Below, piece after piece: positions 56,536 through 61,775 of a stretch of DNA of 64,000 bases. A program made the position numbers and the translations under genes. The number at the start of each line of letters is the position of its first letter. Position 1 is the stretch's first letter. The DNA is from Bacteroidia bacterium (GTDB taxonomy: Bacteria > Bacteroidota > Bacteroidia > Palsa-965), in the NCBI GenBank assembly GCA_023151315.1, contig JAKLJE010000012.1, positions 27,584 through 91,583 on the forward strand, in the 5' to 3' direction. The notes under the pieces were generated by a model. The model was not told the origin of the DNA, did not search any database, and saw only the letters and a program-made list of their open reading frames with translations.

Positions 56536-56567
56536 AAAAAGGCTCTGATTTCAGAGCCTTTCATTTT
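56536..56567. terminator. Bidirectional intrinsic terminator between the convergent lptB and dsbD genes.
   Basis: AGGCTCTGA and TCAGAGCCT form a perfect 9-bp stem with loop TT. It is flanked by A7 and T-rich runs. Confidence 0.7.
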
Positions 56568-58721
56568 TTACTTTCCGCTTCGTTTCTTGAATTCACTTAC
56601 TCCTGATTTCAGCAGGTTGGAATACTGGGTAACATCAGGTGTGTATGGAATAGGAGGAAGGAGTGTTTTTTCGTTATGATCGAGTAAAACATATAATGGC
56701 TGCGCATTACTTCCGTAACGGTCAATCTGCATCTGACTCCATTTATTTCCCCATGTTTTAATCTTTATTCCGTCAGGAGTTGTGTATTGCAGGTTTTCCG
56801 GCATTGCTTCTTTGTCGTCGCAGTATAATGACACAAGCACGTAATCATCGCTCAACTGACGCAGTACTTCCGGCTGCGGCCACACGTTATCTTCCATACG
56901 ACGGCAATTTGCGCAATTGTATCCTGTGAAATCCACAAACAAAGGCTTGCCTACTTTCTTTGCATAAGCGAGTGCAGCATCGTAATTATGGAAGCAGTTC
57001 AGGTTAAGCGGACAATGCGCAGGATCCACACCTTCCGGCAATGCTTCTCCGTCTGATTTAGCTGTTGTTTTCGATCCGCTGAAAGCTGCGATGTTTTCAC
57101 TGTAATAGGAAGGAGGAAGAATTCCGCTCAGCATACGAACAGGCGCTCCCCACAATCCCGGAATCATATACATCACAAAAGCGAATGTAATGATGGCGAA
57201 AGTGATTCGCGGTACAGAGATAAACGGCAGATCACTGTCGTGTGAGAATTTGAGTTTCCCGAGAAGATAGAATCCGATGAGCGAGAAGCAAACGATCCAC
57301 ACCGCAAGGAAAATTTCACGGGTTACAATTCCCCAGTGGTAAGAAAGGTCAACGTTGGAAAGGAACTTCAAAGCAAGTGCGAATTCCAAAAGTCCCATTA
57401 CCACTTTAACAGAGTTAAGCCAGCCTCCAGATTTCGGAAGTGAATTCAACCATCCCGGGAACATCGCGAACAACGCGAATGGCAATGCAAGTGCAATTGA
57501 GAAACCAAGCATCACGAACAATGGACCTGTAATTCCGGCTTTGGTTGCTTCTACAAGTGCTGTTCCTACTATCGGACCTGTGCATGAGAATGAAACAAGT
57601 GACAGCGTAAACGCCATGAAGAAAATTCCCATCAAACCGCCTTTGTCTGAAGCACGGTCGATCTTATTCACGAATGCTGATGGTAATGTAATTTCAAATG
57701 CTCCGAGGAATGAAACACCGAATACGATGAACACCAGGAAGAAGATCAGGTTGAACCAGATGTTGGCACTGAGCTGATTCAATGTTTGCGGATCTCCTGT
57801 TGCAAGCGTTACAAGCAATCCGAGTGATACATAAATTCCAATGATGGACAACGCATAAATAAGTGCATCGCGGATTCCTTTCTTTCTGTTCTTAGCGCGT
57901 TTCGTGAAGAAACTCACAGTCATCGGAATCATCGGGAATACGCATGGCGTAATCAATGCAAGCAATCCGCCTGCGAATCCGCCGCCGAATGCAGTCCAGA
58001 TGGATTTATCTTTCAACTCACCCGATTGGGGAGCAACCGATGCGGTATCACTGTTCTCCGGAGTAATTGCCGTTGCAACAGAATCTGTATTGTGGTTGCT
58101 TGTGTCCGATGTTGTTGTTCCGCCGGTCAGCGTTGCGATCACCTGATTCAGACTGTCGCAATTACAGCTTCCGCCATTAGTGTTCGCTCCGTTTTCCGGA
58201 TTTACATTTTGCGAAGCGTCACCGGGTTTGCCTTGTACATTAAATGTAAATGCAGGTTGCGGAAAGAAGTTCACACATTGCTGATCGCTGCAAACCATTC
58301 CGTCAATAACACCTGTAATTTTTACCGGCTTGTCTGTTTTTACTTTGATTCGCTGCTTGAAAACGGCTTTGTCTTCAAAGTATTTGATCACCTGATTGTC
58401 AAATACAGGTTCAGCCTTTTCAATTCCTTTCGGCTCGGTTGCTTTACCGACCAAAACGTAATCCGGACTTGGATCAAAAAGGAATGCCGTAGGAAGCGGG
58501 CCGTCTTTTACTTCAACCTGCGAATACAGATGCCAATGTTTATCAATTGTTGCAGTGAAAATCAGATCGAATTCAGAATCATTGATCTGTTTGGTGGAAT
58601 AACTCCATGAACAATGCAGATCCGGTTTTTGCGCATACAGATTGCTGCCGCTGAATAATAAAGTAAGCAACGCAATCATTGCGCTGAATCCAAATGTTCT
58701 TTTCATCACAATTCGCTTCAT
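56568..58721 (-). CDS. dsbD: Thiol:disulfide interchange protein DsbD (alpha domain, CcdA-like TM core, thioredoxin gamma domain).
   Basis: N-terminal alpha domain with CSDQQC. TM core with LITPCVFPMIP. C-terminal thioredoxin domain with YNCANC. The alternative start MKRTFGFS lies 5 codons downstream. Confidence 0.85.
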   Translation of the reverse strand: MKRIVMKRTFGFSAMIALLTLLFSGSNLYAQKPDLHCSWSYSTKQINDSEFDLIFTATIDKHWHLYSQVEVKDGPLPTAFLFDPSPDYVLVGKATEPKGIEKAEPVFDNQVIKYFEDKAVFKQRIKVKTDKPVKITGVIDGMVCSDQQCVNFFPQPAFTFNVQGKPGDASQNVNPENGANTNGGSCNCDSLNQVIATLTGGTTTSDTSNHNTDSVATAITPENSDTASVAPQSGELKDKSIWTAFGGGFAGGLLALITPCVFPMIPMTVSFFTKRAKNRKKGIRDALIYALSIIGIYVSLGLLVTLATGDPQTLNQLSANIWFNLIFFLVFIVFGVSFLGAFEITLPSAFVNKIDRASDKGGLMGIFFMAFTLSLVSFSCTGPIVGTALVEATKAGITGPLFVMLGFSIALALPFALFAMFPGWLNSLPKSGGWLNSVKVVMGLLEFALALKFLSNVDLSYHWGIVTREIFLAVWIVCFSLIGFYLLGKLKFSHDSDLPFISVPRITFAIITFAFVMYMIPGLWGAPVRMLSGILPPSYYSENIAAFSGSKTTAKSDGEALPEGVDPAHCPLNLNCFHNYDAALAYAKKVGKPLFVDFTGYNCANCRRMEDNVWPQPEVLRQLSDDYVLVSLYCDDKEAMPENLQYTTPDGIKIKTWGNKWSQMQIDRYGSNAQPLYVLLDHNEKTLLPPIPYTPDVTQYSNLLKSGVSEFKKRSGK

Positions 58722-58827
58722 ATTTTCTTCGGTTGAAGTATTGATGCGGCTAAGTTAACGGTATTAAACATCTTGCTGATGCGCGGACAGAACATGCAAA
58801 CAATCAGTCAAAATCGCTCAGTTCTGT

Positions 58828-58862
58828 AAAAATAAAAAGAGGCTGTCCCTTAAACAGCCTCT
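58828..58862 (-). terminator. Intrinsic terminator of the DsbD-alpha-like gene.
   Basis: AGAGGCTGT and ACAGCCTCT form a perfect 9-bp stem with loop CCCTTAA. On the minus strand it is followed by TTTTTATTTTT. Confidence 0.7.
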
Positions 58863-58883
58863 TTAACATAGTTTTCAAAACAC

Positions 58884-59369
58884 TTACTGTATGGTAATCT
58901 CAAAATCTTCGTCGTCAGGTGAAAGACTTTCTCCTGTGCGGTTGAGCATGTAGTTTGCAACAGCCTTAATAATGAAGTTGTTTGCGCCGTCTTTAATTTT
59001 AATATGCTGAATGTAATGAACTTGTCCTTCCAGACACGTCACTTCAAAGCCATATTGAGAATCATAGAAATTGGTTGTCTTCCCTGATTCTTTAAGTTCT
59101 CCAACCAATTCATATGAATCTGAAGGATCGAAATCAATCGTTGTTGCCAAAGGACCGTCTTTTCCTACCATTGATTTGGAGTAAATCTTCCATCCGGCAG
59201 GAACTGAACCGATAAAATGTACATCCGCCTCATTATTCTGCTGGTGTACTACATAGCTCGACCATTTAACGCGAACAGCATTGGTTTGCTTAAAACTGCC
59301 CATTAAGATGATTGAGGAAAGGAGAATCGCAACAAGCGAAACTCTTGAAACTAACCCTGATGCCTTCAT
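58884..59369 (-). CDS. Stand-alone DsbD N-terminal (alpha) domain-like secreted protein.
   Basis: Signal peptide followed by VRVKWSSYVVHQ...GWKIYSKSMVGKDGPLATTIDFDPSDSYELVG. This parallels HCSWSYSTKQ...HWHLYSQVEVKDGPLPTAFLFDPSPDYVLVG of the adjacent DsbD. Only one Cys is retained. Confidence 0.55.
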   Translation of the reverse strand: MKASGLVSRVSLVAILLSSIILMGSFKQTNAVRVKWSSYVVHQQNNEADVHFIGSVPAGWKIYSKSMVGKDGPLATTIDFDPSDSYELVGELKESGKTTNFYDSQYGFEVTCLEGQVHYIQHIKIKDGANNFIIKAVANYMLNRTGESLSPDDEDFEITIQ

Positions 59370-59499
59370 TTTCAGCTTTTTAGTTAAAATAAAGGGCAGA
59401 TATTGTGCCTCCTGCCTTAAAACAAAGGTAAGAAACAAAAAGTTATTAACAAAATAATGTTGAAGGGAATAATCGGCGATTTTAAGCTAAAATCGCAGG

Positions 59500-59793
59500 T
59501 TAGGTAATAATCTGATGAATACGACGAATCGGAATCACCATTCCGCTCTTAAGAATGATACGTTCCTCTGTTACTGCCCAAATGGTGGTTTCCACCTGCT
59601 TCATTCCTGTCATATCTGAGAATATGATTTTCACTTTGGAATGATCCACGTTGCCCAATATAAGCGCACGATCCAGCTCATTTCTCCTCTGTCGGCGTTC
59701 GTCCGCGTTGGATAAAACATCTTCTTTAGGAAAGCTCATTTCGCTGATAGTTTCCTTTTCGATTTTCTGGATGTTGGTAGCTGAGAACGACAT
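59500..59793 (-). CDS. Small hypothetical protein, 97 aa.
   Basis: Complete ORF with no signal peptide. I recognise no family. Confidence 0.4.
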   Translation of the reverse strand: MSFSATNIQKIEKETISEMSFPKEDVLSNADERRQRRNELDRALILGNVDHSKVKIIFSDMTGMKQVETTIWAVTEERIILKSGMVIPIRRIHQIIT

Positions 59794-59922: not shown

Positions 59923-60471
59923 TCAATTTTCAGGGTTTTGACGTTGTGTGTGCAACAGGCTTCTCAGTATTTGAACCAATTCACCCGATTTCTGCGTGCC
60001 GATTCTGTAAATCTCTCCGGCGTTATCACGGATTTCAACGAATTCGTTGCCCCAGGTATAAAACCTGATCTTGCCCTTAATTTTCAAATTGAAAACCGGT
60101 CGCGCAAAAATTGTAGGTCGTACCGTCACTTTTCTGACTTGAACAATCGATTGAATCGGGATCTCAACTATTCTTCCCGCAAGCTTCCCTTTAATTCTGA
60201 TGATTCGATTGTCCACTTTGATTTTCATGTGAGGAACAAACAACAGAATCACCGACAATGCAACTAACGCTAATCCCAGTACGAAAAAGAGTTCACCGTA
60301 TCTCACATCACCCGGATATTCACCAATGTGAATCATCGCCACGTCAACCGGTTTCGGGTTTTCAGACCAGTAATAAGCAACGAAGCAAAATACACTCAGA
60401 AGCAATCGCCTGATCATGGAGTGTTTGTTGAGACCATGATATTGCTGTTCTTCAAAAATCAGTTTTTCCAT
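59923..60471 (-). CDS. Membrane protein with a bacterial PH (bPH_2/YdbS-like) domain.
   Basis: Two TM helices followed by a beta-rich PH-like domain. Start at ATG (MEKLIF), which overlaps the 3' end of tilS by 13 nt. Confidence 0.5.
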   Translation of the reverse strand: MEKLIFEEQQYHGLNKHSMIRRLLLSVFCFVAYYWSENPKPVDVAMIHIGEYPGDVRYGELFFVLGLALVALSVILLFVPHMKIKVDNRIIRIKGKLAGRIVEIPIQSIVQVRKVTVRPTIFARPVFNLKIKGKIRFYTWGNEFVEIRDNAGEIYRIGTQKSGELVQILRSLLHTQRQNPEN

Positions 60472-61775
60472 GATAAATGAATTACTGTTGTTGAAGAAGG
60501 TGTGACTTTGTATTTGTCGGCAATTCTGTATCCCGGCACCCAAACAATTTCATTATTGAAAACCACAACAGGATAATTTCTTTTAAGATGCGACGGAACC
60601 TGAATTTCATTCAGCACATCACTGATTTTTTTTGTGCCTGAAAATCCGAAAGGAACAAATGCATCTCCGGTTTCCCATTGTCGTACTTCAAGTTCTCCCG
60701 CGCCCGGATCAATACTCAGGAGTGCATCATATCCGCGAAATTCTCGAGGATCTGCTCCACTGATAATGCGACAGCTCCAACCATTATGTGTAACTGAGTC
60801 GGGCTGCAGGCGGAATGAAATAAATTCATCACTGTTTTCCTGTTTCAGAATAAAATCTTCGCGATCCACATGCAGCGACATTCTATTGGAGAGGAATTTC
60901 TTACCGGTTTGCAGTTCGAAAAGTGAGTCGAATGTTGCTTCGTCGAAGTAAAAATCAAATCCTTCCTCTCTCAGCAAATGATTGAACAGCAATCTCGGTT
61001 CCGGACTATGCCGCAGTGAACTTTTCCTGAAGTGTATTCCGTCTTTATGCGGTGTTGCAATTTGTTCTGCAAATGAATCGGCAAGAGCATTCAACAATGC
61101 ACTTTCATCCGCAAGGTTGTCAATTGAATTTTTCCAACCTTCTCCGTTCCGTTCATCACATTCATTAAGCACCGGAATCAGGTGGTGACGGATTCTGTTG
61201 CGGAGGTACGCATCAGAGCTGTTGGAAGAATCTTCTCTCCAGCTGATATTTTTCTGTGTGAGATAATTTCTCAGTTCAGTGCCTGAAACATTCAGAAACG
61301 GGCGAACAACTTTTCCTTCGTGAAATTTCATTCCGCTCATTCCGTTAATTCCGGATCCACGCAGAAAATTCATGAGCACCGTTTCCAGTTGATCGTCGGC
61401 ATGATGGGCAGTAGCGATGAAATTGATTTGTTCCGTTTCAATTATAGTGTGAAAGAAATCGTAACGGATTTTCCGTGCCGCATTCTGAAGATTAGAAGAA
61501 ATGGAATCAAGCTCGGCCTGCGATGTTTGCCGGATGTACAACGGAACGTTAAGTGTTGTGCACAAATCAGAAACGAACTTTTCATCTCCGCCGGATTCGA
61601 CACCACGCAAATTGTAATTCACATGAGCAACGCAAAACGGGATTTCGCATTCCCGTAATGCATGAACGAGAGCAACCGAATCAGCACCTCCTGAACATGC
61701 GGCAAGAACGGTTTGCCCCGAATGGAAACCGCAACGCGTTAATAAACTATTCCGAAGATGATCCGCAATATTCAT
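60459..61775 (-). CDS. tilS: tRNA(Ile)-lysidine synthetase TilS.
   Basis: PP-loop LAACSGGADSVAL. About 439 aa from ATG (MNIADHL). Confidence 0.85.
   Translation of the reverse strand: MNIADHLRNSLLTRCGFHSGQTVLAACSGGADSVALVHALRECEIPFCVAHVNYNLRGVESGGDEKFVSDLCTTLNVPLYIRQTSQAELDSISSNLQNAARKIRYDFFHTIIETEQINFIATAHHADDQLETVLMNFLRGSGINGMSGMKFHEGKVVRPFLNVSGTELRNYLTQKNISWREDSSNSSDAYLRNRIRHHLIPVLNECDERNGEGWKNSIDNLADESALLNALADSFAEQIATPHKDGIHFRKSSLRHSPEPRLLFNHLLREEGFDFYFDEATFDSLFELQTGKKFLSNRMSLHVDREDFILKQENSDEFISFRLQPDSVTHNGWSCRIISGADPREFRGYDALLSIDPGAGELEVRQWETGDAFVPFGFSGTKKISDVLNEIQVPSHLKRNYPVVVFNNEIVWVPGYRIADKYKVTPSSTTVIHLSWKN

Follow-up and report, generated by a model that had tools for sequence, protein, structure and literature searches.

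A 64,000-nt stretch of the genome of a Bacteroidia bacterium (assembly GCA_023151315.1, contig JAKLJE010000012.1, positions 27,584 to 91,583; "the window" below, to which all coordinates refer) encodes, directly upstream of dsbD, a 161-residue protein that resembles the alpha domain of DsbD and lacks its catalytic cysteine pair. Reducing power reaches the oxidising cell envelope mainly through DsbD, whose alpha domain distributes it. From sequence comparison and a predicted model, we identify this orphan as a stand-alone protein of the DsbD-alpha (nDsbD, immunoglobulin-like or Ig-like) fold, and by its phylogenetic position it is orthologous to a stand-alone alpha-like protein that is redox-active. 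Probably no new system is involved, but a derivative of a known domain that has ceased to be catalytic.

The orphan coding sequence (58884..59369, minus strand) opens at a conserved ATG. Its first 31 residues (MKASGLVSRVSLVAILLSSIILMGSFKQTNA; 59277..59369, minus strand) read as a typical Sec-type signal peptide with no lipobox cysteine and probable cleavage after TNA, and the AlphaFold2 (AF2) model places a helix at residues 9-22 ahead of the beta domain; the mature protein would be periplasmic. A 184-residue version beginning at an upstream TTG (59370-59438, minus strand), produced by a mechanical open reading frame (ORF) call and found in one database homologue (P0001), was rejected as probably an over-extension: nearly all homologues use the ATG at 59369, and the extension contains the -7 box of a promoter-like element, which argues for the ATG start. 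That element, TTTG-N19-TACCTTTG (59423..59453, minus strand), was found by pattern search 53 nt upstream of the ATG. It matches the -33/-7 consensus of Bacteroidota promoters (TTTG / TAnnTTTG) and is a predicted promoter. At the other end of the gene, a terminator scan finds an intrinsic-terminator-like hairpin with a T-run (58826..58864, minus strand; 13-bp stem, 3-nt loop), the hairpin itself (58864-58836, minus strand) beginning 20 nt past the stop codon. Since the orphan has a separate ORF with a stop codon, followed by this hairpin and, only after a spacer of 162 nt, by dsbD, it is no N-terminal domain of the DsbD polypeptide, and the first-pass annotation, made from the sequence alone, was right to give it a terminator of its own.

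BLASTP aligns 128 residues of the orphan with the neighbouring DsbD (30% identity, E=4e-13), most of the identities lying in the mature part. Pfam and NCBIfam models give no match to it, and neither the orphan profile nor the DsbD alpha domain retrieves anything meaningful from the PDB by sequence, so the link to nDsbD structures comes from fold comparison. By hhalign, the orphan family and a profile of 21 stand-alone relatives that bear the cysteines match at a probability of 99.94% (E=3e-37); 20 of these 21 match PF11412 (DsbD_N) at E<=0.001, and one of them reaches 47.6 bits, where the cut-off is 25. An AF2 model based on 23 close homologues (predicted local distance difference test, pLDDT, 83; predicted template-modelling score, pTM, 0.72) has its best Foldseek matches in the nDsbD domains of E. 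coli and of Neisseria, as well as in the N-terminal region of ScsB. The model predicts an Ig-like beta-sandwich that retains the cap-loop hairpin (FYDSQYGF, strands 86-103 and 108-125). The first-pass annotation had proposed a separate, secreted alpha-like paralog and had called for a structure prediction; the prediction and the alignments now agree with it, and the similarity extends over the mature domain and is not confined to signal-peptide or low-complexity sequence.

What the orphan does not retain is the active site. In all alignments the DsbD segment GMVCSDQQCV is matched by YMLNRTGESL in the orphan, the two cysteines being replaced by N143 and S148 (codons for NRTGES at 58926..58943, minus strand, the former active-site hairpin by alignment and by coevolution). 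The corresponding catalytic pair in E. coli nDsbD is C103/C109, and cysteines stand at both columns in 236 of 303 related domains. The redox-active pair of nDsbD, one cysteine on each strand of the active-site hairpin, is therefore absent, as the first-pass annotation held, and with both cysteines gone the orphan cannot run a dithiol-disulfide relay. The aligned residues exclude it chemically as a dithiol relay that receives from the DsbD gamma domain and reduces partners of the DsbC, DsbG or CcmG type. Without the defining catalytic feature of nDsbD, the thiol:disulfide interchange annotation carried by one JGI record is inappropriate. The one cysteine that the orphan does have, C112 (59034..59036, minus strand), had been taken to stand where DsbD has CSDQQC; the count was correct, and the position was not, since CSDQQC aligns to NRTGES. 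C112 (in FEVTCLEG) aligns instead with the Tyr of DsbD IKYFED and, in our own alignment, with approximately Tyr77 of E. coli, four residues past the cap loop (Q105-Y106-G107 corresponding to F70-Y71-G72). This different, second-shell position rules C112 out as a leftover of the active site. In the Cys-less clade, one member (L013:2231-2719) has a cysteine at the first catalytic position and not at the second (YMLCRDGEIL), which would be either an intermediate or a reversion.

A word-indexed search finds at least 34 close homologues of the orphan (62-94% identity), none with a Pfam annotation, and an exhaustive profile search finds 1821 relatives at E<=1e-3. Among the best 150 of these 1821, many are DsbD proteins of the Bacteroidota type, 800-950 residues long, in which two alpha-like domains stand in tandem and in most cases each has CxxxxC, and many are stand-alone proteins of about 150 residues with CxxxxC; Cys-less domains are a minority, either stand-alone or second in a tandem. 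The Cys-less form related to the orphan occurs in 11 GTDB species-level metagenome-assembled genomes (MAGs) labelled Bacteroidia, Flavobacteriales or Bacteroidota, some with the doubtful label "uncultured Chryseobacterium". Side cases were drawn from a representative search (P0037-P0184): in a few tandem DsbD proteins the second domain is Cys-less (P0043, P0084, P0147, P0176), an arrangement resembling alpha-A/alpha-B of ScsB, and one or both cysteines have been lost independently in other stand-alone relatives (P0119, P0170, P0179).

The origin of the orphan can be traced within its own locus. Locus L017 has the same pabB-tilS-p206-p97-X-dsbD gene order, and X in this case (P0047, 161 residues) keeps its cysteines as CNENEC and is a member of PF11412. 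A neighbor-joining (NJ) tree unites the Cys-less proteins in a single clade (bootstrap 100%), which is sister to the Cys-bearing protein of L017 (99%) and stands apart from all DsbD-borne alpha domains, the neighbouring one included. When more taxa are added, P0052, encoded at the same locus and containing no cysteine at all (YMLSNGNEML, with Ser at position 112), falls between the Cys-less clade and L017 with 60% support. The order of events suggested by these sequences is that a redox-active stand-alone alpha protein lost its cysteine pair, and that C112 and other residues were gained afterwards. A recent tandem duplication of the neighbouring alpha domain was rejected because the tree groups the orphan with stand-alone orthologues, and fission of a two-alpha DsbD is not favoured because the Cys-bearing orthologue of L017 is already stand-alone beside a single-alpha DsbD. 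The first-pass term "paralog" thus holds in the sense that a homologous alpha-like protein lies beside DsbD; as a local duplicate it does not, given the tree and the synteny.

Judged by its sequences, the Cys-less clade is under strong purifying selection. Mean column identity is 81% over 23 homologues, with the former active-site segment YMLNRTGESLSPDDEDFEITIQ almost invariant, and comparison of the orphan with its orthologues gives dN (nonsynonymous divergence) of 0.15-0.20 with dS (synonymous divergence) saturated. Across six subclade-A orthologues, the window included, the mature orphan is 76-89% identical, compared with 60-84% for the DsbD alpha domain of the same genomes. A set of residues distinguishes the clade (at least 90% within it, at most 10% outside it, in comparison with the 236 Cys-pair domains): Y39, H42, H51, P57, M67, F101, C112, Y119, H122, L142, G146 and E147. 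Six of these (M67, F101, C112, L142, G146, E147) remodel the surroundings of the old active-site hairpin and the cap loop, and H42, H51 and H122 are new histidines. Mean-field coevolution analysis of the 303 domains (effective number of sequences, Neff, about 263) recovers the E/F cap-loop hairpin and also the G/H hairpin, in which 143 and 148 show strong coupling. The predicted contacts 106-148, 106-143 and 60-147, together with the G/H hairpin, agree with the published description of nDsbD, in which the cysteines lie on opposite strands of a hairpin and have the cap loop as a shield.

With moderate confidence, from these sequences and by analogy with the Cys-less alpha-B domain of ScsB, we read the orphan as an nDsbD-derived module for thiol-independent binding. 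Its ancestor would have been an alpha module working in trans, presumably reduced by DsbD gamma; the orphan itself would be a non-catalytic pseudo-oxidoreductase, one that binds without thiols, its old partner-docking end holding a thioredoxin-fold protein or another periplasmic ligand. A thiol-independent role is suggested because the constraint is strong, because the cap-loop hairpin and the flanks of the active site have been kept, and because the sister protein P0052 is free of cysteine. We infer the binding function, as well as any tie to DsbD activity. Decoy, adaptor and scaffold, all proposed in the first-pass annotation, are plausible candidate roles. Several points weigh against this reading. 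Only one of the five AF2 models is confident (pLDDT 83, the rest 56-69), and the statements made here about spatial proximity derive from coevolution, not from coordinates. The invariance of C112 could mean thiol chemistry after all. The TM+gamma module of DsbD exists in two types (about 80% identity within a type, about 60% between types) that do not track the orphan or the species split, and so give no sign that orphan and gamma domain have evolved together. At the P0052 locus the next gene encodes a small non-DsbD protein, after which the contig ends.

The first alternative is a function unrelated to DsbD, the adjacency being inherited synteny and the orphan an independent monocistronic unit; we consider this unlikely. 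The promoter-like element and strong terminator of the orphan are what such a unit would have, and the modules of DsbD are mosaic relative to the orphan. Within the clade, dsbD directly follows the orphan in 12 of the 12 distinct loci with enough downstream flank. The whole neighbourhood is shared (pabB-tilS-p206-p97-orphan-dsbD / lptB-DUF5686), so that the 12 cases are not independent and make weak evidence of a functional link. An invariable association with dsbD, which the first-pass annotation had asked to have checked, stands for these 12 loci and fails at the P0052 locus, where the lack of an adjacent dsbD means that the link is not absolute. More telling than adjacency in the clade are the alpha-like/dsbD pairs of distant genomes. 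In Flavobacteriales (L018/19) and Chitinophagales (L020), and likewise in an unclassified Bacteroidetes MAG (L022) and in Chitinophaga (L024), dsbD is immediately preceded by a stand-alone Cys-bearing alpha-like gene, and the last three loci have no tilS/p97 context. The size of about 150-165 residues, the signal peptide and the position directly 5' of dsbD are common to the orphan, L017, L018/19, L020, L022 and L024; the CxxxxC of the stand-alone Bacteroidota proteins is missing from the orphan. The orphan's ancestors were, moreover, bona fide DsbD_N proteins. No TAnnTTTG box is recognisable in the 162-nt orphan-dsbD spacer, so dsbD may rely partly on read-through of the orphan terminator, which would tie the two genes together.

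A second possibility is that C112 is a relocated reactive thiol, forming a mixed disulfide with DsbD gamma or a substrate, or carrying a sulfenate or persulfide. C112 is found in 49 of 49 members of the Cys-less clade and in none of the 236 Cys-pair domains. Position 112 is coupled most strongly to 61, then to 76, 63 and 106, neighbours that it shares with positions 143 and 148, so that coevolution assigns it to the second shell around the former active site. A second cysteine, at position 136, occurs in subclade B, L004, P0035 and P0036 and is weakly coupled to 148 and 106; it is absent, however, from the window protein. The sister orthologue P0052, free of cysteine, has Ser at 112, and redox-active relatives have K, Y, F or W at this position, whose pairing with residue 61, on a neighbouring strand, better fits a packing residue than an exposed nucleophile. 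Single-cysteine chemistry is, on balance, unlikely.

A more elaborate form of the binding proposal, which we regard as a rather unlikely speculation, would have the orphan gate periplasmic reducing power. It would dock unreactively, through its cap-loop end, on DsbD gamma or on a thioredoxin-fold client; its own promoter would set its level, read-through would set the ratio of orphan to DsbD, and the His/Cys patch would sense, for example, metal or pH.

Very unlikely, in our estimate, is that the orphan is an Ig-fold periplasmic binder of some new ligand, such as a metal, with a site built from the gained His, Cys and Met residues and no mechanistic tie to DsbD. The clade-specific gains include H42, H51, H122, C112 and M67. 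Coevolution ladders (41/43-49-122, with 49-122 ranked second) place H42, D49, H51 and H122 on the adjacent strands A-B-F, at the end of the domain opposite the old active site, where they could share an exposed face, and the related Scs system ties the fold family to copper stress (PMC10907172). No metal-binding family is matched in Pfam or NCBIfam, however, H118 is not conserved in subclade B, and 49-122 resembles a salt bridge (E/K,R) in relatives, so that D49-H122 may be a simple swap. The last alternative, a decaying functionless relic of a duplicated alpha domain, to which the loss of both catalytic residues might point, has next to no chance and is the sole rival effectively refuted by conservation, given that at least 34 homologues, and 11 genomes at species level, have the reading frame unbroken, and given the identity and substitution values above.

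The dsbD gene itself (56568-58721, minus strand) encodes a complete DsbD of 717 residues, delimited by Pfam and NCBIfam models and by the positions of its cysteines. It comprises an alpha domain (58227-58631, minus strand; CSDQQC at 58275-58292), a transmembrane (TM) domain (57354-57995, minus strand) and a gamma thioredoxin domain (56667-56987, minus strand; CANC at 56904-56915). Pfam finds DsbD_TM (E=1e-23), Thioredoxin_7 (E=4e-11) and also Thioredoxin_2, with DsbD_N below threshold (E=2.4e-4). All relay cysteines are present: C144/C149 in alpha, C260 and C380 in TM, and C603/C606 in gamma. Additional to this classical relay is a cysteine pair in the low-complexity linker between alpha and TM1 (residues 186-188, 58158-58166, minus strand), a CxC/CxxC motif that occurs also in L010, L014 and L017 and is followed by helix-like EI.KAV (window GGSCNCDSLNQVIATL, L010 SCNCTAEIQKAVADAM, L014 GNCNCTDEIEKAV, L017 GGCTGCAAEIEKAVAKAL). 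In L010, L014 and L016 the DsbD alpha domain has C-x7-C in place of C-x4-C. Across the window and L001-L017, the alpha domain, the TM+gamma module and the orphan each split the same genomes differently, a mosaicism that suggests exchange of modules by recombination.

Most of the related loci examined also have a hairpin with a T-run between the orphan and dsbD; the short spacer of L010 has none. The spacer hairpins of L001, L004-L007, L009, L011-L014, L016 and L017 have a conserved stem (ACGTGTTGAG...CTCAACACGT or GGTCGTGA...TCACGACC) and end a few nucleotides before the dsbD ATG; they could be an attenuator or a 5' untranslated region (5'-UTR) element rather than a plain terminator. In the window spacer (58722-58883) the hairpin is unrelated to these; it comes just past the orphan stop and is followed by a 110-nt spacer, and the conserved hairpin of the relatives shows no enrichment as a repeat across the window. 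Downstream of dsbD, a 10-bp hairpin (56538-56561) lies within the 32-nt gap between the convergent ends of lptB (56535) and dsbD (56568), and looks like a bidirectional terminator shared by the two genes.

Directly upstream of the orphan, p97 (59500..59793, minus strand) encodes a conserved 97-residue protein. By tblastn, loci L001-L019, L025 and L027 all have it (41-91% identity) directly 5' of the alpha-like gene; among them are L018/19 of the Flavobacteriales and the P0052 locus, which lacks a neighbouring dsbD. Searches of p97 against Pfam and NCBIfam gave nothing significant, only a weak PuhB/bPH-like match (E=0.014). Preceding it, p206 (59923-60543, minus strand) encodes a membrane protein and overlaps the 3' end of tilS. 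An Rfam scan of the whole window (1-64000) yields no family at gathering score, and there are no alpha-like domains in the 64 kb beyond the orphan and the DsbD alpha domain.

Three known systems bear comparison. The orphan shares with nDsbD (PF11412; PDB 1JPE, 1L6P, 1VRS, 6DPS) the Ig-like beta-sandwich, the cap-loop and active-site hairpins, a predicted periplasmic location and homology by sequence and profile; it differs in having N143/S148 for the cysteine pair, in not being fused to a DsbD membrane domain, and in lying below Pfam detection. The alpha region of ScsB (PDB 6C29) consists of two tandem Ig domains with a redox site in alpha-A only, and alpha-B has been suggested to modulate interaction with partners (PMC10907172). 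The orphan, in its predicted model, is likewise a DsbD-alpha-like Ig fold without a redox motif. Alpha-B is fused behind alpha-A in ScsB, whereas the orphan is secreted as a protein by itself, from a gene that has a promoter-like element and a terminator of its own, and the neighbouring DsbD has a single alpha domain; nothing of the tandem fusion within an ScsB transporter is present. The third system comprises the stand-alone Cys-bearing DsbD_N proteins of Bacteroidota encoded 5' of dsbD (for example P0047/L017, L018-L024), annotated by domain only. The orphan is orthologous to them and similar in size, signal peptide and gene position, but they keep CxxxxC and lack the Y39...E147 signature of the orphan clade.

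In the open-access literature searched we found no paper on stand-alone or Cys-less alpha proteins, or on extra alpha modules in Bacteroidota. To our knowledge, redox-inactive relatives of the alpha domain have been known only as the fused alpha-B of ScsB, with a role that is so far a suggestion. The impact of the present case is limited by the make-up of the clade, which consists of uncultured Bacteroidia/Flavobacteriales MAGs, and by a function that is so far putative; it is a pseudo-enzyme with a traceable origin. Several lineages of Bacteroidota nevertheless encode additional alpha modules, stand-alone or in tandem within DsbD, and here a single orthologous position offers a series from a Cys-pair form through a Cys-free form to a form bearing C112 and the new histidines. 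A free, strongly conserved and redox-dead module of this kind would be a tractable case for the role of the non-catalytic nDsbD fold.

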